From positions 3,596,001 through 3,660,000 of the forward strand of contig JBLDXI010000029.1 in NCBI GenBank assembly GCA_047495785.1: a DNA stretch of 64,000 nucleotides. Reading direction: 5' to 3'. Made by a program: the position numbers and the translations under genes. The notes under the pieces were generated by a model. The model was not told the origin of the DNA. It saw only the letters and a program-made list of their open reading frames with translations, and made no database searches. Positions 18,831 to 64,000 of this stretch are shown here, in pieces (position 1 is the first letter of the stretch; the number at the start of each line of letters is the position of its first letter). Source of the stretch: Lepidodermella squamata (taxonomy: Eukaryota; Animalia; Gastrotricha).

Positions 18831-21642
18831 TTACATTGCTTGAGGGTTGTGAGGCAAACAGTCAACAATGAGGTGCATGTGATCGTTGGAGTGAGGAATA
18901 ATTGGAAATGATCTTTTTACATGTAATTCCTTCCATGAAACTATAGAAATTTTTTTCATGTCACCGGTTACATGATAAGAGAAGTAGCGGCGGAAGAAGC
19001 GCTCGATGGTCAGTTCAACAACAACGAAAAAAACGTCATCATCAATAGAGTAAATGCACTCAATTTGGTGAAAAGTAGGTCGATTGGGACTATTAAACCA
19101 GCCGACACTCGGCTTCGAAGTAGTAATAGCCGAGCCGATTACAAAAAAAGCTCCTTTATAGCGAATCGAATTACGCACGACAGCTCTTTCAGGTAGACTC
19201 AAAGCAGAAACGTCAAGGTAGCTCAAATATTCGGTTAGATTTTTCTCTTTTCCTCCATCAATCAATTTCAGCGAATCAGTCGAATTCAAGAATCTTTTCG
19301 ATTGATATTTTGCACAGTTAAAAATTTGAGAAATGGGATTATGGTAATTTTTTGGTTCAATTTTACAGAGACCTCGCTCGAAGCCAAGAGACGAGTAGAA
19401 TCGCGCAGGTCCGTATTCACGCATTTGCTGCGGATAATGAACAAGGTTGTGAAGCTTTGTTACAACAAACGACTCGCCATAAGTTTCAACGGACAGTTGC
19501 AAGAATCGAAAGATCAAGTTTTCAAGGATAGGTACATCATCAAGAAACACAAAAGGCGAATAAATGAAAGATAAAATCTTGTGTAAAATCTGAAGCACAT
19601 GGTATTCCTTCGAATCAAAAAACATTGGTTTCTGTTTCAGACAAGTAAAATCTAGAATAAATCCTAGCCGGGTCATTAGAATTCGCATTTGCGTCGCCGT
19701 CTGATGACAGTGAATTTCGCCGGACGTCACCGTGAAATTCGGTGCCGGAATCGCCTCATGTTTGGCTGTGTCGTCGAAGTCGAATTGCTCGATTGCGTTG
19801 TTCATCGCGTCATCCGTCAGCCCGAAGCTGGTCTTGGCCTTAGTAAGGGCTCCGTTCAAAACGTAGACGCAGACACCCTCCAGTAGGTCATGGGCTGGCT
19901 CACTGACTACGCACGCTGGGAATCGCGGGCCCAGGTGCGGTGACTCGGCCAAGATAGAGAGTACGCCGCTCAACCCAGTTTCGGTCATCCTGATTCGAGA
20001 AAAATCAAAAATTTTAAGGAGGACGATTTTTCAACAATTTTCAACAACTTTTTCACATAATTAATGGAAAAAATTAATTAAATAAAATAAAATGAAAAAA
20101 TAAGGAAAAATTGATATAAGCTAATTTTTACTTTCAATCAGCAAATAATTCTAATTTTTTTTAATTTTGGAATAATTGACAATTTTTCTTTCAATTTGGA
20201 GGAAATTTATCTATATTCTAAAATAGAGCTGTGTCGGTTCTAATTCTAGATTCCCGGTCCGGTTCTGTTCAACGCTTCTGGAGGACCGGACCGAGTTAGC
20301 CGGGAGAACCGGCGGTTGACCATAATAACTGAAGTGTGCGAAAACTTGATGAAAATACTTACAACGCCCTCATCTCCGTAACATTCGGCGCATCTGAAAT
20401 CCTTCGCGATTGAACAACCATAGTTTCCGCGTTTCGTAGTTTCAGGTTCGTAGCTTCGAAAACGAGGCCGAATTGCCCGCGCGGTGTTTCACATTTCGAA
20501 CACGTGAGATGAGCCCGAAAACTTTCGAGCATGCCGATGATTTGATGCTGAGCCAAGTTATCGCCGAGAAAACTCACGACGATAATTCTAACTTCTTTGC
20601 CTTGGACGATGATGGTGGTTTCGAGATCTTTCTCAACCGCCTTGATGACTGAATTCAGGGCTGAGTAACAACAGGACTTGTATGACACGATTAGCTAATT
20701 CGGAAAAAAATTACCTGCTGTTTTTCTCGTTTCCTTAGGTAGCTCGCAGCTCTTCGAAGCGGCGAGTAGAAAATGGAATTCAGGGCTAAAAAATAGGGAA
20801 ATTAGAAAAAAAATTGAAAAAAATCGAAGGGTAGTCTCACATTTGTTCGAACATTCTGGCGATCATCTTCCATTCGAAAACGGCCAATTTTTGCTTCTTC
20901 ACGTAAGTTCCAAGAGCGGAAACCGATACGAACTCGTCAAAGAAGAGAAAAAGTGGGACAATAAAATCCTCATTAATATCGATGATAATTTCTCGAACTG
21001 CCGAGCCATCAAGAGGTGATGTTAAAAAGCCGTCGGATTCTTGTTGCAATAAACTCGTTTTGCTGAAAATTTGCAGTAAATCCGGCTTCGAGTTTAGAAA
21101 GTAGCTGATTTGTTTAGAAATCGGTAGGTACTGGAAGGTTTCGACGGCCTCAGGTTGACAAGGCGCCAAGACTGATAGTAATTTTCCGCGGTTGTGAGTC
21201 GAGAGCATATTTTTGAAAATGTTATCGAATGGAAGAGACCAAAATCCACCGATGTAGTGTTCCAGCAATTTTCGAACGCATTGGGCGAGGAAATCGACAA
21301 CAAAACAAACAAGAGTTTCAGTCGCCATGAAATCGAATTTTAACTTGAAAATAAACTCGAGAAGCGATGAATTCAAATTCTCAGTCAAAATATCTTCAAT
21401 ATCGAGCTTATGACGGACAGGCTCATCTTCCATTCATCAATCCCATCAACAACAGGCGCATGCGTTAAGATCGGCTGTTGGTCACATTTTCCGACTGGCG
21501 CACTTTCGTTCGAACGAGGCAAGCAAACGTGTTGGTTGAACATGTGTTGAGAGGTGAATGTAGCCTTGCAGTCACATATCCATTCAGCTTTTTTGACTCT
21601 TGTAAACGAAAATGAAGAAGCCATTCTAAACAAGAGAGTCAT
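18831..21642 (-). CDS. EnSpm transposase; exons ~21642-20841 (1-nt frameshift at ~21434), 20785-20715, 20660-20363, 19989-18831
   Basis: Motifs LFFDEF..SALG..KKQKL, GDNLAQHQIIG..ESF..CSKC, HDLLEGV, KLHNLVHYP..YGP..GFER; N-terminal C2H2-like CDC..F..H..H; phase-compatible introns. Confidence 0.85.
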
Positions 21643-21912
21643 GTTCTCATCAATTTATCATTTCATTTCTTCGAAATCGAGTTCACAATATTTTAAAACA
21701 AAATAGCAAAACGATACCGATAACAAAACTGAGGTATCGATGGAAACAATTACGTTGACTATTAACACAATTCCGTAACAACTCGAGGAATCCGAGAAAT
21801 TTCGAACAGATTCATGATTCAACTAAGTTGAGGCATAGTATAATCATCATTTGAAACGAAATGAGCGGTTTATCAACACGAAACAGGAAAAAAACTAGTA
21901 ACAATCAGACAG

Positions 21913-23661
21913 TTATTTATTGGCCGCGAGCCTTTGACCGAGGGTCTTTGCACGCTTGGTGCTGGTAGACTCCGTCGAATCGTCGTACGCCGGTCGGCGA
22001 TTTGAAGGGGCGAGAGGGGTTGAGGCAGACGTCGTAGCGGGCGTTGTAGCAACCGCTGTTTTCCGGGTATTCCGAGTTGCGGCTGGCGTAGTGGCCGTTG
22101 TAGGAGCACTCGGAGCCGCGGCCGGTGTTGACGCGGCAGTCGGTGCTGGCGTCGCAGGTGCGGTCGTCGGGGCGGGAGTGGCCGGCGCCGCTGTCGAATT
22201 CGTCGACGCAGCCGGGGTAGGCGGCAATTGGCCAGCTAGATCAACCGAAGAACCGTCATTCTGAAAAAACATCAAATTATGAAATAGTCAGAAAATATTC
22301 AATTTATAATATATATATAGGATAAAAATTATTGAATTTTTTGTGGAAACTTTTGAATTAAATTTCTAAATTGACATTTTTCCGAAATTCAAAGAAATTC
22401 AATAAAACTTTCAGTCAAATAAGTTTTCTAATATTTTTGCAGAATTTATCATCAAAATTGAAAATTTATTGAAATTTAAAAAAATTGCTAAAAAAATCAA
22501 GCTAAAAAAATAAATCAACTACTCACCGGGAGCGAGTTGCTGTCGGAGCCGCCATCGTCGGTGGAGGGCGGCTGATTTTCGCCGTTCAGGGCGTCGGCAT
22601 CCGGCGGAAGCTGCTGCCCGGCGGCCTTCTTCGCCTGCGCCTTCGCCTTGGCCTTCTTGTTGTTCAGGCATTTAGATACCCTCTCCTTGAACAGTGTCTG
22701 ATACAGAAGATAAATTATCACAAATTAGGATTAAAAAATTGCGAACAAACCTGCTGGTTCTCCCCAGGAAACAGAAGACCGGTCACCGCCGGGTTGGCCT
22801 CGTGGGTTATGCGCCATTCTCGTTCCACAAAGGCCAAGATGACCCCGTAGTCGCCTTTGCCGAACGGACGAACCGGATTTTGGTTGAGTGCAGTAATCGC
22901 CGAGAAGCGAACCAGGGTTTGAAAAGTTGTAATCAAAGCACCCGCGTCCCACTCGGAACCAAGCCGGCCGTCAAATTGGCGGAGAGTGAAGCGGGTAAAT
23001 TCAAACGTGATCTGCGCCTATTAAAATAAAATCACAGGAAAAATCAGTAATTAGCTATCAACGGAGTGAAGCAACACGCGAAAATTAAATAATAAATTTT
23101 CTTACCTTTTGAGGGGAAACGGCTACAACAACCGTTACAGCAGCAGCAGCAGCGACGGAAGCGGCTCGATTTTTAACGAAAGCCACAACGACTTCGCAAG
23201 CCTTTCGCAGGCCGAGCGAATTCGGAAACATTTCCCGAATGTCATCTTCCGTTAATGCAACCATAACGGCTTCGTACAACTGTTCCCCTATAATAGAACA
23301 TATTCGAATAAAATTCATTGAATAAAAATTCAGATCAAAAAATTATCGCAATATTTCAATAAACATAAAAATAATTCAATTAAAATTCAGATCAAAATCA
23401 GAAAATTATCGCAATATTTCAATAAAAATAAAAATAATACAATTTGAATTTAGAGCAAAATCAGAAAAATGGGAAGCCGATTTTCCAAGTATTATAATAT
23501 AAATTTGATTGAATGAAAAAATTTCGAAAAATCATAATTTTCACTACAATAATAAAATAAGGGAGCGAACCTGCAAATTTAGCCGACAGGCCATCGACGT
23601 GATCTTGGTTTGTAATGCCGGCTTCAGTAACGAGCTTGATTGCCTCCGTCAAATAATCCAT
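21913..23661 (-). CDS. EnSpm accessory protein (~352 aa); exons 23661-23571, 23287-23106, 23017-22751, 22697-22527, 22260-21913
   Basis: Five exons joined in frame by GT-AG introns; SAM-like segment LTEDDIREMFPNSLGLRK; basic stretch; Pro/Thr/Ala-rich tail. Confidence 0.7.
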
Positions 23662-35931: not shown

Positions 35932-38550
35932 TTACTTGCATCCGTCGGCTAGACAAACTGAAAGCAATAAACCGTTTGGATCATTCGAAATGAAGTATCG
36001 ATGAAGAAAGGGCAGCACTAAATAGAAATATTGTTGCATACCTTCAGAACCTGAAATTCAAATTTAATGTATAAATTCATTACAGCGTGCCTAAGATTAC
36101 GTTGTGAACAGTCAGGACCGGTGAAACCCGTGTTACATTCGCACGTGTTCGGAGCGATGCACTGTCCTCGCAGAAAGCATCTCTTCTTGCAAATAGCTTT
36201 ACAAATAGAAATAACGTAATTAGTATTATTACGTATCAAATCATAAAAGATAAGGCTCTAGCCTCTGGCCAAAGTGGAATTTGTAGAGGAAAATTTGATA
36301 GGATGAACTTTTTCAAAACTATGAATGACTGACTAACGTGCTAGACAATCTGGTGGGTTCCAGTCCGACGTGCACATGCATCGATTTGGCCGCACGCAAG
36401 TTCCACCGTTGGCACAACCAGCGGAGCACATAGCTGTGGTAAGACAGGCCATTGATAATCATTCGATTCCTATATTGCAATATAAGATATTACGTGTGTC
36501 GCAAGGTACCCCAGTCCACCCTGGTGCACATGTGCAAACGTTGACAGCTGAGCATTTACCTCCGATGCCACAGGCTGGAGTGCAAGTAGCTGAAATAATT
36601 TATTGACGAAGATTCTAATAAAACTTTCACACCAGGGAAGATTCTTTCGAACTTACGCCTGCTACAATCCCACCCAGTCCAACCTGCTTGGCAAATGCAT
36701 TTGTAACCGCCAAGGCGGGTGAGATCCCCAACGCATGAGCTGGGTTGACAATTTGGAGCGCAGGAGATTTCTGTTCAAGGTAAGCGCACTGTTATACTGT
36801 TATATGTCTAATATTGTATCTAATATAAGCATTTTGTGTAAATCTGTCAAGAATTTGGCACCAGGCATTGTCATACATGTGCGAGTTTGGTGTGCGAAGT
36901 GCCAGGGGAAATCGAACCCCTCTCCCCCAGTTCGAAAGGCCAGTGTGGAAAATCCCCAAAAACAAAACACCACAGGGGGACCCTTTGTTCATGACATTTG
37001 AAAGTCACTGAGTGAAATTTTTCAGAACCGGATTTTCGTAAGCCCTAAACTGTATGACTTTGAGGTGCTCGATCAAAAATATGGACCCACGGCCTTTCTT
37101 TGCTAAAACCATAGACAAATAATAAGAGACTGGACACTCTTGCCTTTGCTGCCGAAATTATTCGAATTTACAATTTAAAATTCCTCCTTAAGCACATTCT
37201 TAAGGAAATTTACAAATATCAGCCCTCACTATATTCTGGCGTTGCAACGACAGTTTTCATCGGCTGTGTACGAGCCGTGGCCATAAAAGGCAGTAGCTCA
37301 CGCTCTATTCAACCATATAAATTTTGAAGCTGTATCATAAAAATCTCCTCGAAAATCAGGGCTTTAAAAACTTTGAGAGCCTGCCTTGCAATTTGCCCCA
37401 TCTCGGATTCCAGAATTTTATGAGCTTTCTTTTGATACCAAGATGATACCGAGATGGGGCAAATTGCAAGGCAGGCTCTCAAAGTTTTTAAAGCCCTGAT
37501 TTTCGAGGAGATTTTTATGATACAGCTTCAAAATTTATATGGCTGAATAGAGCGTGAAAAGTTGCCCTAGATCGTGAAACCTTATCTCTGCATCGTGAAA
37601 ACTCAAGGCACAATTAAAACACAAAGTCAGTTTTTGATTTCGGCAGTATGAAATAAGCGTGAGTGTCCAGTATCTTATTATTTGTCTATGGCTAAAACTT
37701 TTGCATCTCCAATTAATCCTCTTGCAAAATGCCCTATGGGGCGTCTGTCTTGTCCTTACGATTGATTAACTGGCATTGCTGTCTCAAAATCGCCATTTGG
37801 CCTATTGATAACGCAGCTTTGTGTATTGAAACGCAGGCGTACTTCGTGTTGTATGATGAAACGTCAAGATACCTGATAATTTATATAAATCTATCTATCT
37901 TTCTAATTTTAGCTAACTGATCCTAACCTTCGGCCCAGAGTCCACAGTGAGGAGGGAATCGCCTGAGGAGTTGGGGGAACCATAGGACTGATTCCAACAT
38001 CGCAGACAGCGTAATACGATGAGTTTGAAGCGTTATATATGAGTGCAACGAATTGCCACGTCGTGAAAGCGCATGCCATTTGCGTGTAGCTTGTGTTACC
38101 ATCGCCGATGTAAAGAACATTGGGAGTCATTGCTCCGTTGTTGTTACGATCGAAATGCCACAAGTGGCCCTTATATACTCCGTTATTACCATTCCACTCG
38201 AAGATGGATCCTCTTTTCGGAGCGAAAACGAAACCAGATATAGTGAATGAAGATAAGCCTGTGTCAACTCTAGTGTCGTTAACCTCGATCCAACTTGTAT
38301 TATCAGCTTTGTTCGTCTCCCAAGCTGTTTTTGGTACTCCAAATGGTCCCTGAGTCAAGACACCCACATTAGTTTTGAAGACAGCGTCCAGCGAATTGCC
38401 AGATGCGTCTCGCGTGCCAAACAGTTCGTTGAACGGCCAATACGCAACCACATTTGGAAAATTCACTACTAGGTTTGTTTTGAATTGAGCGATGTACATC
38501 TGACCATTCACTACGCACTGGAGCATGCAAATGAATGAGATTAATTTCAT
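35932..38550 (-). CDS. Secreted LamG-like (ConA/pentraxin-type) + 4 EGF protein, copy B
   Basis: Signal peptide; VVAYWPFNE..DASGN..SFTISGFV..TWQFVALIYN..LGRR; exon 2 ACVSIHKAAL; four 6-Cys EGF exons; 9-nt microexon; final exon CLADGCK*. Confidence 0.8.
37110..37690. mobile_element. MITE (581 bp), CATAG...CTATG ends, 8-bp TSD, internal 109-bp inverted repeat
   Basis: ~30-bp TIR CATAGACAAATAATAAGA(G/T)ACTGGACACTC; TSD GCTAAAAC at 37102-37109 and 37691-37698; inner arms 37298-37406 and 37449-37557. Confidence 0.9.
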
Positions 38551-41389
38551 ATTTCCTACGGAGGAAATTTAATGCATGGAAAGAATGCTTAATGCAACCT
38601 GCAACCCAAAAATTAAGAATTTTACGACCTGTATGTGTAGAGGAATGTCATGAATAATAAATGAATTCGAGCTCGGTCCGTTCTCGGGTTCCGGGCAACA
38701 AAAGCATAACTAAATTTCGTGATCTACTGCTGCTATATGATGGAAATTTCAAATCGCCTCATTTTTCCATGCGAATATTCTTACTTTAGACGCCGCTGCT
38801 ATGCGTCAATTCGAGAATTTCAATTGTGAGCGGTGAGCATTGGGCGTGTACCATCAACAAAAACAAAGCAAATAGCAAATGCCCGCAGGTAAAGTTAAGA
38901 ATGAAACATATGCATATAAATTTAAGGTGTTTTTGTGGCTTTTTGATCGATTTTGCGATGCGAACACCTTGATTTGGCTACCAAAACACGGCATCGATGT
39001 CTGTTACTCAATCACCAATCACCATCAATGCGCGCGCACACCCGCCTACTGGGGTTGGTGCTAAACAGTCCGATATCCCATTAGATTGGTATACCAGCAA
39101 ATCCCCCTATTGGGTGCTTCTTGCTTATTTTTCTAAACAATCGATTAGTTTCGGTCTATTTTACGCGATATTTCCTCGTCAACTTACGTCATCAAATATA
39201 AACCGCTGATCAATCGCTTTTTTGATTGAAATGGCAGATACCGCCCCGCCCATTTTCTATCGCAGCTGGCTGCATCGACGCCATGGTAGAACCTATACAC
39301 ATTGATATACATGGGTGCCGAGTCGATTTCAACGTGATTCGTGCATTTCGCACTCCCACCTTTAATTCCCACCCTGTTCTGCCGCGTTCAGTTAAGCATT
39401 TATTAGATGATATACTGACATGGCAACTGTTAGCGTAATAGTTAGTTCGGAACTTCGCTTGATGCAAATGTTATGAGAATGAGTATGAGTAAACTTTTAG
39501 AATGGATTACGAGTTTCGCAATCCCACCCAGCCCCATGAGACGTAGCTAGGACGCCGAAGCTAGAACCCTGCCATACAAACTGAAGTGTTGGCGTGTTGC
39601 ATACACGAATATTCTGAATAATTCGAAGGTTGAAATTTAAAAAATTTCAGGGTTTCTCAAGAAGAAAATAAATAAAAATTCATAAAATTATTTAAATAAA
39701 AAGGTGGAAATGTAAAGGGTGCCGGAGAGTTTCAGGTTCCATGGTTACCATGCTGGATCCAGGTTCCAGAAAATAATTGGTCAAGTTACGATGTTGCAAA
39801 GGATGGGCAAGGATTTCGAAATGCAAGTATTTGGGTTGATAAAACTATGTTATTGAGATATTTCTCATAAATTTCCACTTGACGTAATTATTAGTAGAAC
39901 TTTGTTGCGCAATGTCATGGGAACACAGGCTAAGTAAAAAGTAAAACGACTGCGTGCTGTTTTCAATGGTTCTAAATGCATCCACACATAATAGATTAGC
40001 ATTGGGAAATCCTCTCTTAAAAAACTGCCCTCTTATTAATGGGCCTTGGTAAGCTGATGGCGAGGTCAAGCAACGTCAGTCACTGGCAGGTTTGGCGATC
40101 GGCTCGAGCTATATGCAATAATGGCAATTCCCATGGAACCTTGGCTGAATGGCAACAGCTCAGCTATTTAATCGGCCGTTAATCACTGGAATATATTCGA
40201 GGAGAACTGAGCCAGAAGCCTGATGTTGGGATCAGGTTTGGATCAGGTTCATCGTAAAATCTGGACCTCGACCTGGAGCATCAATTTAATCCAACTCGCC
40301 TGGGCTGTTAGAATTGCAAATTTTCATTAATTCCACAATAGGTTATTATTATTTATTATTTATTCCACCTTAAATTTTTATCTGAAAAATGAAAAATGGG
40401 CGGGAGCTTCTGCCCGATTTTTCATTTTGGCAGAAAAGTTCTTATGTTTTCCTTTTCCTTTGCCCTTTAAAAACAACTTGAATGAAAAAATTGTTTCTCC
40501 CGAAAGGGGCGGCCGGAGGCTCTGCTCGATTTTTGAATTGCCAGTGATATTTATTTTCATCTAGCTGTTCTATGATTAAACATGCTACTTGTAATTTTGA
40601 AATTGTTTTTTCTGGCGGTCTTCCTCGGCGAGAATCCCCTGGCTTTGCTGAGTTTAGCGGGGCAAATCATTAGCCTTCTGGTCATCGTGTTGGCATTTTT
40701 ACTGCTAGTGGCTGGAGCGCAGCGTAGAAAGTAGGATTTTTGCCGAGGGGGGGATTGGGTTTTCCTTCCAAAAAAATTGCGCTCGCCAACGCTGCGCGTT
40801 CGCTCGCATGTATCATTATATTTATTTATTTTCATTTGCATTTTCTTATGTCATCCATCGTTTTTTCTTGCTTGAAAAATTTGGATTTCGCGACAAAATT
40901 TTCCATGGGAATAGCCTGAAATTACTAAAAAACAACCCCTTGGATACACCCCCAGCATTCAAAATTAGAATCATCGATGAATTAAATATTCCCTATTTTA
41001 TTTATGAAAAATGAGGTTTTTTGGGTTTTAAGAAATTCGATTTTTGATTCTTTTTAACTAAATATCACAAATGTTCGAAAAACATAACTTGATTCTAGAA
41101 AAAACTAGAGGATTTTTTCATAATTTGTTAACAATTTTGTCTTTATCATCGAATTGGCCATCGAATTCGAAGTGAAATTGATTGGAAATTGACCCTAATA
41201 ATTCGAAATATAGCGGAAATTCATTCCATAATTGATTTCATGGTGCATGGTGCATTATAGGTATGTAAACATTTTCAATATAAGAGCGCTACGTCTCACA
41301 GTCGCTCGCGCTCAACATTTAAAATTATCTCTATAATGCGCGCTTCTACTAAACATAGCCTCGAACCAGGCTTGCAGTTCGCAGTATTA

Positions 41390-41512
41390 GCGCGTGCGCA
41401 TCTGCAACACAATGCGCTCACTGACCACTGAGCGCGCGCGCACATGCAACACGACGCGCACATTATAGAGCGCGCGCAGCAGCCAATACGCGCACACAAC
41501 CATTATAAATAC
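41390..41512 (+). promoter_or_regulatory. Putative transposase promoter (GCGC-rich repeats + TATA box)
   Basis: Repeated GCGCGC/GCGCAC motifs followed by TATAAATA at ~41504, upstream of the first coding exons. Confidence 0.45.
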
Positions 41513-41865
41513 CTAAAAATGGGCCAATCAGCTCTCGAGATGGGTGCCATCCCGGGTGCGCGCCAATGCTGAGACCAGGATGAAGGCACATCCCCCCCGG
41601 GACGACGTTTCGTCCTCACCCAGCTAGGGACGGGGTCTTGCCGAGACTAGGATGATCCCCACCATCCCCCCCCCCCCCTACTTTCTACACTGCTGGAGCG
41701 GTAGTTCTGCTGTTTTGCGTCTTTTCATTCTCTGGAAAAAGAAGTTGGAGAAATGCGTTATTTTTCACCCTACTCTGCGCAGCGGGTAGAGACTTCGATT
41801 TCCTGGCAAATTCAACGAGCTGTATTGAAGATGATGTTCCATACCATGGTTCACATTGGGAGAAA

Positions 41866-44815
41866 ATGGTTTCGCATTGCTGTAGCTCGATTGATCGCGG
41901 GTAATTTGAGAGTGAATAATGACTTTGATCTTCCTAAATTTGCCAATCTTCACTTGAAGATGTTTCAGTTCCGACCCGTTCCATTATCATTTTATGAAAG
42001 CGACGTTGTTATTAAGAAGTGGCGATGTGAGTTTGATGGGAAAATGACCATAATTTAGTCTCTAAATTACCAATTTTAGGTTGAGTCGAATCCAGGCCCC
42101 GGAATAATGAAATTTACTTCGCTCGCAACTGGAAATAGCCTATCAAGTCAGTCTCGCACTACGCTACCTGGGAATGCTTCCTGGCAGGAGGATACAATTA
42201 TTCGGACGCCTCATATCCGCAAAATAAAGGACGAACCTAAGCCAGGTACATTATTGTTTCATTTCGATAGCCTGAAGTTGTACGAGAATTTTTTAGAAAT
42301 TCCCGAAAAACGCGGAAAAACAAGTGTGGAAGGACCGGCTCAATGTGTGGTTATCGTAAACCCGCGCTGTTCTAACAAGGGAATAAGCATAACTAATAAT
42401 TCAACGATTTCTCGACTTGGCACGCCCACAGTGTCTGAACTAAGAGCGGCTGGATTTTCTGGCAAACCCGCTGAAAATCTTCGAGTCGTCCGAGCTCCTA
42501 AAGTCAGAGTTAACAATTCAAATCAAACTTTGACACCTTGTAAATTAGGCTGTTCATCTGTTGTGAAAGAAAATGAAAGATTGCGAAGGGAAAATCGTTC
42601 TTTGATTAATACTTTAGCTGCTTATAGAAGCAGGTCAAAAATGAGAAAAATTAAGAAAAAATCCAAAAATATTCGGCGACGTAATACTAGCACTGGGACT
42701 CAGGCTGATATGCCTACCCAGGTGGTTCATGCTCCCAAACAGCATTTAACAAGTAATGAACTGCAAGACCTGCTATCTCTTCAGCACCGGCTTCGATCTA
42801 TTGAATCAGTCCATGCTATACGCTATTCAAGTAAAGCAGGCGAGGTTCTCATGAGGGTGGCGTTAACCATCCACTCCATTAGTTCGAAGGCTTACGAATT
42901 TCTTCGCGATTCAGGAATACTAATTTTACCTCACTCTTCAACCATAAACTCCGTTACACCAGTCGATTACGAACCAGGAATTTCTGAAAGCTGCCTTAAA
43001 ATGCTAGAAGAGCAGATAAAATCTTCTACTAAACCTGAAACCTATCGATTCGGCCTAATTTCTTTGGATGCTATGTCAATTTCTGGGGGCTTAGAGATCA
43101 TTGACAAAGGCAATACAATTGTTGGAATGTCTCTCGACGAGCCTGGAACACCGGCTACGCAGTGTTTGTCGATCGTACTCAAATTTGTAGAAAACATTAC
43201 TACCGTTAACATAGCTAATTTTCCCATGATAAACATGCCTGTAGATAGAATATCTCTGTTTCTGAAAAAAACTATTGAGAAACTGTATCAATTAGCTACC
43301 CCAGTTATTGTTATCGGTTGGGATGGAGCTGGGGAAAACTGGTCGTTGTACAACGGCCTGGTTAATCATTTCGGATCTGATGGCTTTCCGCATCCTTTCG
43401 CCGACGGCGTCAAGGTTCACCTGCTTTTTGACCCGCCTCACATTTTAAAAATCTGTCGAAATGCTATAATTCATAAAAAGGTCCGTAAATTTCATCTTTG
43501 AAATGAATGTTTTAAAGTTGTTTTATTTTCACAGCTGATCATCGATTTCGCGAAAGTGGACTGGCCGAAATACTCAGCAGTGATGGAGGAAAAGCTAATA
43601 AAAAAGTTTCCAACAACTGGCAAAGGACGAGTCAACTGGGCCTATATCGTCGAAATTTTTGAGCGTGATCGTAATCGCCTAGTTCAGCGGAGTACTAAAT
43701 TATCGCGTCATAGTGTGTACTCCGTTCAACGGAAAAATGCGCCACAGAAGATGAAGGTCTCATACGCGGCTCAAACTCTTTCTCGCTCGGTTGCCATTGA
43801 AATTCTTCTTACTCACCCTGACGATTTGGACGCAGCGGCTACGGCGTTTTTCTGCCTTTTAATTGACTGCTGGTTTGATTGCTTCAACGGTGAAAGCAAT
43901 TCCCAAGGTACTAGCAAGCCGGAGTCATACAGCTGGAAACCCAACCTCGCCCCTTACCAAAGCCCGAACGACAAAAGGTTGATTTGGCTGATAGATTCTT
44001 TTGTACCATTGATAAAACTGATAAATGCTGATAACAAATTTGACAAAACAACGCTATCATGGCAGGCAAATCGAGCATTAATCGAGACCTCCACCAACAT
44101 GGTTGCTCTCATTCGCTTCGCTTTATCGCAGGGTGTCAAGGAATTCTATCCAGCTAGAGCAAATCAAGATGCGAATGAAATGCTCTTTAATCAATTTCGG
44201 CGCGATGGGAATTCATCCAAATCGAATCCTACGTTTCGGGCGAACCAGCGCCGAGCCGGTACATTGCGAGTCGCCGGTGGTTACTGGGGCGTTTCTCGCG
44301 GGGGGAATGTCGAATCCAGGGGTGCCGTTGGATCTTTGGATCTCAAATGTGCTCGAAATTTGAAAAAACTGGCTTGGGACAAGGCGAAAATGTCAAATGT
44401 CCATCGAATTCACCTACCGAATCATTTGACTTTTGATCACAACACGGTAGCCTGGATTTCCGGCTTTATTACCAAAAAACTGGGCCTGAAACCAAGTGCA
44501 GCTTTCCATAGCGATTACGTCGAACTTCGATCGCGTGGCGGTGCCACCCAGCCTAATGGCGACGTTTTATGTGTTGTTAAGGTGGCTCTTTCTGGGTCCT
44601 ATCGTGATGACTTGATTACCTACAAAAACCTGGATGAAGTTGCGCTTCGTTTGGGCCATCAGGTTACAAAAATCAAAGATAAATCGATCATCCTACCAAT
44701 TTTATGTCGGCTGAAATATATCTTGGCCAGAAGAACTGTTCGTTTTTTCCGCGAAAAATTCGGCGCCTCCTCCGTTTCCCTACGATCAAGCTTGAAACAA
44801 TTCAAGAAGGACTGA
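41866..44815 (+). CDS. P-element-type transposase with N-terminal 2A-like peptide; exons (<=41866)-41900, 41960/41969-42026, 42080-43480 (possible in-frame intron 42246-42296), 43535-44815
   Basis: P-family motifs ALTIHSISSKAYEFLR..LPHSSTI, SLDAMSI, WDGAGEN, FDPPHILKICRN, KMKVSYAAQTLSRSVA, NQDANEMLF..NPT; phase-compatible introns; the true start codon is uncertain. Confidence 0.85.
41994..42100 (+). other. 2A/StopGo-like motif MKATLLLRSGD|VESNPGP split by intron 42027-42079
   Basis: GGC GAT|GTGAGT...TTTTAG|GTT GAG TCG AAT CCA GGC CCC; phase-0, 53-nt intron; in frame with transposase ATG 42107. Confidence 0.8.
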
Positions 44816-45297
44816 CCTAATCAGTTAATTAATGTTTTTCCTTTATTTCACTTTCATTGTCTCCAAATTGAACCTTTGTTACGAAACTTCATTAGCCTGA
44901 ACTTTGATTGCTTATTGTTTTCGATGTTTGTCAAGCTTTATTGGCCATTTTACAGCCAAAAATCATTCATTTTTTAAGTCGAGTGAATTTTTCCGTAAAT
45001 TCATAACACGAATTAATCCTTTACTTGCTTTGTCAATCGTCGATTTAGTTCCATGGTAATTATTGTGATTAATCATTATATTTTCGCCATTAAAATTTTA
45101 TTTCAACTCAAGACATAATAAAAAGTTTAATCTGCCTATCATGGTAGAACTGACTCGTTGCTATGACGATCCGCGCGAAAAGTTAATGAGATGATTCATC
45201 TCATTATTTTCAAAAAGTGACCTTTGACCCTAATTATTTCTGACAACACTTTTTTGTCGTAAACAACCCAGCTGCGGCGTCCTAGCTACGTCTCATG

Positions 45298-45545
45298 ACC
45301 CAGCCCAACCAGCCTGCCACGTGAATCTGTAACCACCTATACTCGTAAGATCGCCGACACAAGAGTCAGGTTGACACTTTGAGGGGCACGTGATCTCATA
45401 TAGACATTTCAGTGGGGGTTAGGCAGCCTAGAAAGAGTTACTCACGGTTGATAAGCTGACATTGCAAATCGCTAGTTCGCCCAGCGAAAGTGCAGATTTG
45501 TGAATCGATACGCAAGCATACTTGTTGTTGCAAGATTCCGAAGAA
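45298..45545 (-). pseudogene. LamG-EGF relic (exon 2 + first EGF exon); the EGF exon continues at 39534-39512 beyond the P-like element
   Basis: ACVSIHKSALSL exon with a small deletion; EITCPSKCQPDSCVGDL exon with Cys losses. Confidence 0.7.
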
Positions 45546-45772: not shown

Positions 45773-45934
45773 CAGTGTGCGAAGTACAGGAGGGGGGGGG
45801 GGGGGGGGGTATACGTTATTCGTTACTCTCACCTCGAAAGAAAACCTCAAAAAAAACAGAGGGCCCTTTGGTCCAAAAAATACGGCGCCGGGAATACCGT
45901 AAGTACTCGCCAACTCGAGGTTCCTACTGCACTG
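45773..45934. mobile_element. hAT-type MITE (162 bp)
   Basis: CAGTG...CACTG termini; 8-bp TSD CGTCAGGA at 45765-45772 and 45935-45942. Confidence 0.8.
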
Positions 45935-46319
45935 CGTCAGGATTTTTGTTGAACTTCAAAATTATGCGATTTATTGAATTTTCGCAACCAAAGCCTGAAA
46001 ACTCTGGAAAATTAGATATGACGTGACCTGGAGACAGGTCTGCATGGGGGGGAAACATATACTGCCATTTTAGTGAACGTAAACATTTTAGTGTTTAACG
46101 CACGCTATTTTTTAAGATTTGTCGAGCACACGCCATTTCATCCAAAGATTCGTCAAATTGTCACAGGACGTAACAGAAAGTTAGACATTACAGCAGTGTC
46201 GGTTATTCTAGATTTTCATGCTTCTCAGGAACCGGCAGCATATTTGCTAACCTTGGACACCTTGGATAAAAATAAATGAAGGCATTACGAGAAATTGAGC
46301 CACGTGTGACTCACGTGTG

Positions 46320-47562
46320 AAACAATCCGACCCTGTCCAACCGGCATTGCACGTGCAATTTTGTGGAGCAGTGCAGATGCCTCGAAGGTAGCATTGTTGC
46401 ATGCCGCTAAAGAATGAATGTGTGGTGTAAGCGAAGCGAGATAAACTTCAACCCAACTCAGAGCGCGTTTAAATTTAAAAAAAAAGGTCGACATAATTAA
46501 AAAAAAAATGGGAGAAAGGGGAGGGGGGAAGGGTACCTAGGTTGGGTGTTTTCAGCCCCGAATTTATCTGACCAAAGGGTAAACCTTGTGGTTGTTTGGG
46601 TTTGGTTACCCCCCGTGCCCTTTCCCGACCCCCCTCTCCCGCACTACGCACACTGGTCTCCTATCGCGAGTCGCAAAGATGTAGTAGGTCTAACTTTTAG
46701 GTTTACTCACGGTTGATAAGCTGGCATTGTTGTCTCAAAATCGTCAGTTGGCTCAGCGACAAAGCAGCTTTGTGAATCGAAACGCAAGCATACTTATTGT
46801 TCCACGATGTAGTTGTAGCAATTCTTGAAGAAAACAAGTATATAGTAGTTATATTCTAAGTATGGAGGTTATAGCTAACCTCCTGCCAAGGGTAAAACTC
46901 GTGCCTGTTGGCGGTGGAGGCTGACCAGTTATCAAATAGGTGGCTGTATCGCAGACTACGATATATGAGGAGTTGGTAGCAACGTGAATGAGCGCCACAA
47001 ATTGCCATGTCGCGTAAGTGCACGGCATTTGCCAGTTGTTAGTCGAGCCGTCAGCTGCATAAAGATAATTTGGCGTTGTGTCTACATTGTTGTTGCTATC
47101 ATAACGCCACAAATGGGTTCCCACGGTTCCGTTCAAATTCCATTCGAATAGTCCACCTCTCTGCGGCGCGAAGACGAATCCAGCTATAGTGAAAGAAGAT
47201 GAGCCCATGCCGATTCTAGCATCGTTAATTTCGATCCAACTCGTGTTGTCTGCTTTGTTCGTCTCCCAAGCTGTTCTAGGTGCTCCGAAGGGTCCATCTG
47301 CCAGAACTCCCTGGTTCGTTTTGAATACTGCGTCGATAGAATTGCCTGAGACGTCTCTAGTCGCGAAAAGCTCGTTGAGCGGCCAATATGCGACTGGATT
47401 CGGTAAATTAACGGCTTGATTTAGCTGAAACTGAGCGATATACTCCTGGCCATTAGCTTTTAGGAGAAAGCAGAGAGCATTGAGGAAAAAGCCCGAAGTC
47501 GTGAATGAGTGCATTTTGGTGTAAAAAATCATTCTTCGTTGTTTGTGGATGTTATAAGGCAT
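46320..47562 (-). CDS. LamG-like gene, copy C (LamG + apparently only the last EGF exon; 3' end unresolved)
   Basis: Intact exon 1 (PVAYWPLNE...TWQFVALIH...LGRR), exon 2 ACVSIHKAAL, single EGF exon at ~46322-46408. Confidence 0.6.
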
Positions 47563-53807: not shown

Positions 53808-54900
53808 TCATTTCAATTTTTCGGCGATCATTTTTTCGGTCTTGTCCCACAAACGAGAAGCCATAACGTCATCATGAGCGAACGGGTAAGTCTCCTCTTT
53901 AGCCGAATCCCTAAACAACAAAAAATCCTGAATTAACCTGGTTGAAGTGGTTGAAGTGGTTGAAATAGATAACTCACGAAAAATATTTGCCGGAATAAAT
54001 TTCGATGCCAGGCGTTGTCGCACAGTAGACTGACGTAGCCGCACCTTGGTTGGGATTACGAAACAACGTTTTGCGAATCAAATTCAAACCAGGTAAACTC
54101 CAGGGCGTGTTGTTGAGAATTTTCGTGTCAACAGCACCAGGGTTAACACTGTAAAACGCGACTCCAGAGGGCGTTGGATAGTTGAGGCGGCGATTGAGTT
54201 CGTGCACGAACAGAATGTTGGCGAGTTTCGATTGACTGTAAGACGCTAAGCCAAAGTACCACGATTTTTCGTAGTTGGGATCTTCGATGTTGAAACCCCA
54301 AGGCAAGCATAATTTGTAGAGCAGCGATGCGACAACGACAACACGAGCTGGGGCAGATCTATTGAAATGAAAAATTAGGAAAAAATTGAGAAAAAAACGA
54401 ATTTAAAATAAAGTAAGATAAATACAAAATGAAACGTTTTCGCAAGTTTTGTTTGTTCTAAAATGTTACTTTTTCAATAGGTCGAGAAGCAGCTTGGTGA
54501 GCAAGAAATGGCCCAGATAGTTGGTGCCGAATCCAAGTTCGAAGCCATCACGAGTTGTCTTTCTTGTGATATTCGGTGGATAAACGCCCGCATTGTTGAC
54601 CAGAAGATTTAACTGCTTCTCCTCGGCGATGATCTGCTCAGCAAATTTCCGAACCGATTCGAGCGATGCCAGATCGATATGGCGAACGGCAAGCCTTCGT
54701 TCGGCGTCTTCTTCGTTGTGAACATTGGCTTTCTCGCGAATGTATTTGACAGCATCACGACCGGAGTCCAAATTGCGGCAAGCGATGGTGACTCGACCAG
54801 CTCCCCGTTTGATCAGCTCGAGGGCGGTCTCACGGCCGATTCCGGAATTGCCGCCAGTTACAATGCAAACCTTGCCTTTGATATCCCAAAATTCTGCCAT
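53808..54900 (-). CDS. RDH12-like SDR, subtype A, inverted copy; exons 54900-54470, 54358-53978, 53910-53808
   Basis: TGGNSGIG, NNAG, YSQSK, VNPG; same intron positions as the array genes. Confidence 0.9.
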
Positions 54901-55312
54901 ATTGAACTTCAGGCGTTCTAAGAACGACCAGTTTTTGTTTTTAGATAAGGCTTGCTGCTGGGGATAATGTTAGGTTGGTCTTTTAATGCCATTTCACTGC
55001 ATAATAACCACGTGATCATCTAATTATTGGCGTGATTAATCCTTCTTTATCACAGCCTAATGTCGAATCTGTTAGGATCGAACTTGGTTCGGATTAGGAA
55101 TTCAAATTTATTACTTCAAAATAAGATGTTGTTACAGTAGACAGTAGTATGTTAGCAAAAGATATTTCCAGAGTGTAGAAAAAGTCATTTTCGTTTCGAT
55201 TGAGGACTGATTTTTGCGGTTTGAGAAAGTCGGAATTGGTCAAACTTTATAATTTTTAACGTTGCTGAGATCTCTATAGGCTCGGTGGCACATTTCGCTT
55301 ATCCATATTCTG

Positions 55313-63234: not shown

Positions 63235-64000
63235 TCAGGTTGTAGCAACTGGGCTGCTGCAGGACTTCGCCATACTGAACTGATGGTAGTAATCAAAATC
63301 GCAAAACTCGTGAACTTGGGTTGACAAATTAAGATACATAGCAACCTCGAGATATCGCAACGGCGCATCGCCCCAACGTTTCTCGTAAATTTGATACGAA
63401 TCGACCACTTCACGCGTGAAACTTTGAATCCCGAGATGATCACGGAATGTCGGCACATGCAGGACTTCGAAATTGTTGTAGTAAACTGGAATTTCGTAGT
63501 TTTCTCTCTCCTCCTCCGTCCGCGGAAATACAGGAAGCTGCGATGTGTGAATTGAGCTGCTGCTCTGCTTAGCTAAGTACCCCTCCGTAAATTCGACCAA
63601 GCCAGCAGTAACAATTGGGTAATCCGTAGTCACCAACCTATAGCCATACAAGTATCTCTTCTCTTTCATATATGCAAAAATGTCGTAGTTAATCGCTGAA
63701 TCTATCTCTGAGTCCGTGTCCAGTCTTAAGTAGTATTCTACGTCCTGCAAAGCAGGGTGTTTAAGAACTCGGTGGAACCAGAAATCGCACATATGCCGGT
63801 AACCTATCGGCCATCTGCTGCCATTTTCCAATGTATCAGGATTGTAAATCTTGAGGAAATTCTCCGGAATTTCAAATTTAACCTCAACAAACTGAATAAG
63901 TTCAGCTTCGTTTGGATGTAGCCATGAGTTAGTAAATTCGTCGAAAGTTTGCCGCTCAGACGACCCTTCGTGAAAAATTAGTATCGGATATCGGAACCTC
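63235..64000 (-). CDS. Glycosyltransferase family 15 (KRE2/KTR-like alpha-1,2-mannosyltransferase), 5'-partial
   Basis: Open frame from the window edge: YPILIFHE, GYRHMCDFW, YYLRLDTDS, YYNNFEV, RWGDAPLR, DYYH. Confidence 0.85.
   Translation of the reverse strand, partial: RFRYPILIFHEGSSERQTFDEFTNSWLHPNEAELIQFVEVKFEIPENFLKIYNPDTLENGSRWPIGYRHMCDFWFHRVLKHPALQDVEYYLRLDTDSEIDSAINYDIFAYMKEKRYLYGYRLVTTDYPIVTAGLVEFTEGYLAKQSSSSIHTSQLPVFPRTEEERENYEIPVYYNNFEVLHVPTFRDHLGIQSFTREVVDSYQIYEKRWGDAPLRYLEVAMYLNLSTQVHEFCDFDYYHQFSMAKSCSSPVATT

Follow-up and report, generated by a model that had tools for sequence, protein, structure and literature searches.

A class A 2A/StopGo-like motif, split by a predicted intron, was found to end a predicted 141-residue hydrophobic leader on the transposase of a P-type DNA transposon lacking a THAP domain. 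Judged from its sequence the arrangement appears to be a real feature, represented here by one damaged copy. The P element, including its 28-bp TIRs, spans 39535-45297 of the window (the whole stretch of 64,000 nucleotides analyzed). The left TIR (39535..39562, plus strand) begins with CATG and matches the right TIR (45270..45297, minus strand) at 27 of 28 positions, and the two are flanked by identical 9-bp target-site duplications (TSDs) at 39526..39534 and 45298..45306; TIRs with a 9-bp TSD were found at this one site. Between the ends lie an open transposase frame with its catalytic residues, the 2A motif, a hydrophobic piece that starts with ATG and a nested MITE. The gene, on the plus strand, would be joined by three predicted splices. 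Two other repetitive elements were found close by: a MITE-like element at 45773-46655 with CAGTG ends and G-runs, where a 7-10-bp duplication was sought and none found, and a foldback element at 37109-37691 with 31-bp TIRs, inner 109-nt arms that are 99% complementary and a repeated 6-mer at its flanks.

The motif becomes contiguous once a 53-nt intron (intron B, 42027..42079, phase 0, GTGAGT..TTTTAG) is removed. The predicted splice joins LLLRSGD in frame to VESNPGP at the head of the transposase exon, and the intron splits the 2A core between D and V. The original prediction had proposed this intron and the in-frame VESNPGP, and its coordinates and sequence were borne out, the splicing itself being predicted. 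The upstream half ends an exon at 41960..42026 (..MKATLLLRSGD, with an ATG at 41994), while VESNPG (42080-42097) opens an exon that extends to the N-half of the RNase H domain (42080..43480). Both strands of the window were scanned for D[VI]ExNPGP, allowing GT-AG introns of 40-150 nt and also seeking the unsplit core; 42079 was the sole acceptor to yield the motif, split or unsplit. Three candidate donors pair with this acceptor, and only donor 42027 supplies both GD and the Leu tract. After the predicted splice the sequence agrees with the class A core GD(V/I)ExNPG-P and has the Leu-rich tract upstream of it, with LLL at -13 to -11 and Arg at -10. By sequence the motif is a member of the class A 2A/StopGo peptides, with putative activity.

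We find it scarcely credible that the motif is a chance outcome of splice-site choice. It was noticed after the fact and all three donors give D|VESNPGP, but the chance expectation per window was between 2e-10 and 3.5e-4: in an order-3 Markov model, 3.5e-4 per 128 kb for any split core and 2e-10 per 128 kb for a split core preceded by LLLx[SACG]GD. The motif together with its Leu tract is far beyond chance. A scan of metagenome contigs for the split pattern, with Asp as GAT only and Val without GTG, returned 31 loci, none of which carried the Leu tract with GD or matched P proteins (tblastn). Loci related to the P element were found neither in viral nor in metagenome contigs.

Paralog families in the window supplied the host introns, a small set whose members are not independent. 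A tandem cluster of short-chain dehydrogenases at 6500-32400 and 53900-55000, presumably retinol dehydrogenase-like, served as the intron training set. Eighteen of 25 host introns were 53-60 nt long, and GTGAGT was the sequence of 5 of 29 host donors. When scored against this small and non-independent set, acceptor 42079 scored among the best 0.5% of all AG, and among all GT donor 42027 fell in the top 8.7%. The GC content of intron B was 0.30 compared to 0.39 and 0.42 for the flanking exons, and the three predicted introns had 0.26-0.32 compared to 0.39-0.47 for exons. The third of these, intron C (43481..43534, 54 nt, phase 0), keeps the frame and has a strong acceptor and a weak donor. Its ends are less certain, with two further in-frame pairings, and the similarity to the relative P0001 stops at the same codon as the predicted boundary.

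The original prediction also held that splicing of intron B could gate expression, with retention meeting a TAG at 42078-42079 at the latest. The stop comes earlier, at an in-frame TGA at 42045, and retention destroys the 2A core. Regulated retention that gates the transposase in the manner of the third intron of Drosophila P would agree with this stop and with a donor that is only moderate in its exonic context. However, an in-frame stop is expected in any such intron, and intron B matches ordinary host introns in GC content, in length and in having a GTGAGT donor and a strong acceptor. Moreover, the donor that scored weakest in this gene belongs to intron C, not intron B. Retention in Drosophila P yields a repressor-sized product, whereas here the product would be the truncated leader only. 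The proposed gate found no support; intron B looks like an ordinary constitutive host intron, and we consider regulated retention very unlikely.

With the nested MITE removed and the predicted splices made, the leader comprises 141 residues, starting at ATG 40582 and ending with the NPG of the 2A. Piece 1 (40582..40719) consists of the ATG and 46 strongly hydrophobic codons, with a GC content of 0.47. Its GRAVY was 2.28, a value that none of 2000 Markov resamples drawn from the 1.1-kb region attained, and its ATG has A at -3 and an in-frame stop just upstream. Residues 1-19 had a hydropathy of about 1.8, and hydropathy windows starting at residues 21-37 reached 2.5-3.3. These values suggest a signal-like segment and one or two membrane segments, and the leader is probably targeted to the membrane.

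The nested MITE (40720..41692, 973 bp) has CAG..CTG ends, 16-bp TIRs that match at 15 positions and a perfect 8-bp duplication (40712-40719 and 41693-41700). In its 8-bp TSD, its short CAG..CTG TIRs and its lack of coding capacity it agrees with hAT-type MITEs, a label that we assume from TSD and end rules. Contig depth was raised across the MITE, and no partner transposase was identified for it. It brings a stop at 40732 that ends the leader after 50 residues, and the window copy of the P element is therefore not intact. What had been described as an intact P-like transposase has an open frame and keeps six catalytic residues, but the gene is broken by the MITE in its leader. In this copy, translation from ATG 41866 or 41994 with a shortened leader, or from Met 42107, is possible.

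To the right of the MITE, the frame dictated by the TSD stays open over 67 codons, compared to 0 and 28 for the two remaining frames. Leader piece 2 (41701..41900) takes up 66 codons with an in-frame ATG at 41866, and the probability of such an open frame was about 0.035. Donor 41901 was the only one with an open in-frame path into the 2A exon by an intron of 45-80 nt. The resulting intron A (41901..41959, phase 2, GC 0.32) is 59 nt long, or 68 nt with the alternative in-frame acceptor 41968. Once the MITE is excised, the hydrophobic piece runs into the sole open frame. Splicing from there reaches the 2A frame and gives a predicted gene of 1029 codons without a stop, made up of the 141-aa leader and an 887-aa transposase. 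Homolog searches with leader piece 2 found no homologs of the leader.

Other ways of reading this region were considered and set aside. Splicing out the MITE with donor 40731 and acceptor 41968 would keep the phase, but the intron would be 1.2 kb long and piece 2 would be skipped, so this is not favoured. A leader of 17 aa, starting at ATG 41994, was set aside once the MITE and hydrophobic piece 1 had been linked. Taken as the leader, a 117-aa +1 ORF (41705-42058) had 0 of 10 changed codons synonymous, and its donor at 42005 yields neither GD nor the Leu tract. A 72-aa ORF on the minus strand (41765-41983) had five of ten changed codons synonymous, which is not clearly above chance.

The predicted transposase starts at Pro 42098, the predicted skip site, and belongs to the P superfamily. 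Exon 42080..43480 encodes, in this order, Pro 42098, Met 42107, an orphan N-terminal region, a coiled coil, a basic NLS-like stretch, a P-type HTH and the N-half of RNase H, while the last exon (43535..44815) contains the GTP-binding insertion domain, the catalytic Glu and the stop codon. Pfam matches above the cut-off were PF12017 (E 2e-6) and PF21787 (E 3e-7) in the former and PF21788 (E 4e-14) in the latter, and the Drosophila P transposase 6p5a was matched at E 0.003. The C-half of RNase H had no Pfam match among those listed, and no homolog of the last exon was found among longer proteins. A phmmer search returned 368 representatives, and the figures given here come from the best 150. The 59 of these that were 600-1000 aa long were made into a profile, which matched residues 139-812 of the 887-aa product at E 3e-90. 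HTH, RNase H and GTP-binding insertion of the P-type core are thus all present, as are the DDE triad and the D(2)H motif, since D324, D409, E676 and D445/H448 are the majority residues of their columns. The support was 59/59 for D324, D409 and D445, 58/59 for H448, 47/59 for D673 and 48/59 for E676. Among the matches listed the closest relative was P0001 (55-56% identity), which is without the N-terminal region; the others showed 23-42% identity.

A THAP (C2CH) domain gave no Pfam match in the P element. Thirteen of the 150 relatives listed have a THAP-like N-terminus, and an HMM built from these 13 sequences found nothing when the element was searched in six frames (best E 0.12); a THAP in upstream exons was accordingly rejected. 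The usual place of the THAP is occupied by the orphan region of about 140 aa; the first 139 residues of the transposase were covered by 0 of the 150 relatives listed. The sole lead for this region in the Atlas was an unnamed entry at 0.85, and single-sequence structure predictions had pLDDT values of 33 and 37, too low for use. By its sequence the element is filed as a THAP-less variant of the P superfamily, not as a canonical member.

The window contains other genes and gene remnants. Judged by gene content the host is a eukaryote, probably an invertebrate animal, and its introns are short. Fragmented transposase-like ORFs at 18834-22847 on the minus strand, which we take to resemble EnSpm/CACTA from their motifs, had no Pfam match at E 0.1, no clear TIRs and no 2A. 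A tandem family at 33000-62700 encodes secreted-looking proteins with an unannotated N-terminal domain of about 200 aa followed by EGF-like repeats; two members were tested and had no Pfam match above the cut-off. A Glyco_transf_15 mannosyltransferase (E 2e-20) was found at 63238-63999 on the minus strand. Glyco_transf_15 is mainly a fungal family, and its occurrence in an animal-looking genome could possibly reflect gene transfer.

Other copies of the P element were found on short contigs of one run, which may itself be where the window comes from. Eleven contigs lie over 41780-42260, of which eight were listed. Looking for the motif in these copies, as the original prediction had suggested, gave a divided answer. 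Read in the 2A frame, the two listed substitutions (42011 and 42015) are synonymous; they are on a single contig with five differing letters, only these two of which were listed. A 5-nt deletion at 42083 breaks the 2A core on one contig. A 1-nt deletion in two contigs falls within intron B. Donor 41901 and acceptor 41959 had no listed change, while the alternative acceptor 41968 appears lost. None of the three changed codons in leader piece 2 was synonymous. Similarity to the window starts only at 41806, where 30 loose letters, if adjacent, would encode an open hydrophobic stretch in the leader frame and have no match to the element. Leader piece 1 or a MITE-free site was seen in no other copy among the matches listed. 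A MITE-like loose end at 42188 resembles the terminus of the element at 45773-46655. This end and the 5-nt deletion suggest that the other copies are dead, and their changes therefore need not be selected. A second P subfamily in the same run, with about 83% DNA identity, covers 42855-43482, and none of the contigs over the 2A region was less than 90% alike.

The original prediction of a leader peptide plus a transposase that begins with Pro agrees with the anatomy of the gene and its 141-aa hydrophobic leader, but for the skipping itself the record of similar peptides is mixed. All three tested 20-mers ending in LLLRSGDVESNPGP, which is identical to the last 14 residues in the window, were classed as 'Nonskipping Only' in the accessible data of a reporter screen described in a preprint (PMC13405545). 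For 30 of the 31 LLRSGD 20-mers in that screen the class could be seen: 21 were non-skipping, 7 were in a skipping class and 2 showed fall-off only (PMC13405545). The same 14-mer is listed among predicted class A 2As in the available part of Table S2 of PMC12338488, where the near neighbours LLLLCGDVESNPGP and LLLISGDVESNPGP have scores of 0.55 and 0.13. We infer that skipping at NPG/P in the window element would be partial.

The 2A-like peptide could instead be real and selected but act mostly by stalling or lowering output, as a translational brake that leaves a low-abundance fusion. The three non-skipping peptides agree with this. In the accessible sections of PMC13405545, protein abundance was often lowered by retrotransposon 2A-like peptides (in 70% of cases for ORF1p and 59% for ORF2p), and the drop was linked to 3-6 leucines, a range that includes the 3 leucines of the window 2A. 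However, the three peptides were classed as 'Nonskipping Only' and not as 'reduced', and a transposase that always stays joined to its membrane leader fits poorly with the recent insertion suggested by the TIRs (27/28) and the perfect TSD, unless the element was moved in trans; we therefore consider a brake unlikely. We also find it improbable that the leader-2A is a captured but idle LINE 5' end or host gene piece, with the transposase made from Met 42107 or 41994. Met 42107, four codons into the predicted product and with A at -3, is in a fair start context, the leader is broken in the window copy and the 2A core in another contig, and the leader codon changes were all non-synonymous. Moreover, the 2A core was seen in 0 of the 150 P-type relatives listed, which are distant, mostly N-terminally cut and mostly single-exon calls, so that a split motif could not show. 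Against an idle fragment stands that four pieces over two introns and a MITE keep one open frame, and that a perfect consensus motif is fused exactly to the frame of the transposase; the codon changes come from copies that look dead and need not reflect selection.

We favour, at about even likelihood, a model in which a membrane-type leader is followed by a split 2A and the transposase is freed by skipping. It builds on the sea-urchin NLR precedent (PMC4981915) and on the N-terminal 2As of non-LTR elements (PMC3708506), and beyond the sequence anatomy its steps are conjectural. The element would encode a single polyprotein in which a leader of 141 residues, likely targeted to the membrane, is followed by a 2A-like motif and an 887-residue transposase. 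The hydrophobic leader would draw the ribosome to the membrane, and skipping at NPG/P would free part of the transposase during translation. Freed transposase, with its basic NLS-like stretch, could enter the nucleus, while the unskipped leader-transposase fusion would stay tethered to the membrane, so that skipping efficiency would cap the transposase dose. The leader-2A module probably derives by capture from a host gene or from a LINE that bears a 2A, and its introns may have been gained or kept inside the DNA element. With somewhat less confidence, we suggest that a P lineage lost its THAP and gained a LINE-like leader-2A to become a cut-and-paste polyprotein, in which the ribosome sets the free and tethered shares; its 2A, with an intron in the core, would be the first one seen of a class that six-frame and unspliced-ORF scans overlook.

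A full-text literature search, with subscription journals and Repbase Reports mostly outside its scope, found no 2A in a cut-and-paste transposon, P-type elements included, in line with the original prediction, which was aware of none in a P-type element; it likewise found no intron inside a 2A. The accessible part of a 2026 preprint (10.64898/2026.09.24.754024) describes StopGo elements as rare among cellular genomes, retrotransposons providing sporadic cases. Four rows mention 'transposase' in the available structural table of PMC13405545; two are curated LINE ORF1p and two are unknown, one with a Mos1 HTH match, and none is P-type. If our reading is true, 2A recoding would not be confined to RNA viruses and retroelements but would also include DDE cut-and-paste transposons, and transposase dose would be set by skipping and membrane tethering. 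Cellular 2As could then be split by introns and overlooked by six-frame and contiguous-ORF surveys. A further question is how the element ends are recognised by a P transposase that lacks a THAP.

The element resembles the P superfamily (Drosophila P and the repleta-group P/BuT5, as far as described in the accessible text of PMC3698922) in its HTH, its split RNase H with DDE and D(2)H, its GTP-binding insertion, its short TIRs starting with CATG and its intron-bearing gene. 9-bp TSDs are reported there for a divergent repleta-group Drosophila P element. It differs from the superfamily in that no THAP was found, an orphan region being in its place, and in that the transposase follows a hydrophobic leader and a 2A. 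With 2A-bearing APE-type non-LTR retrotransposons it shares a short N-terminal leader, a class A 2A and a mobility enzyme in one ORF (available parts of PMC3708506 and PMC13405545); in those elements the 2A lies about 40-80 aa from the N-terminus (PMC3708506). The enzyme here is instead a DDE cut-and-paste transposase. The leader-2A in the window is also unlike theirs in having two predicted spliceosomal introns; in a LINE, loss of such introns would be expected. A further parallel is found in the N-terminal 2As of sea-urchin NLRs, which likewise combine a hydrophobic N-terminus with a 2A and divide the product between the membrane or secretory route and the cytosol. There, the 2A doubling as a signal sequence was shown to set localisation (PMC4981915, accessible part). 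Unlike that 26-aa peptide on an immune gene, the leader predicted here is 141 aa long and is carried by a transposase.
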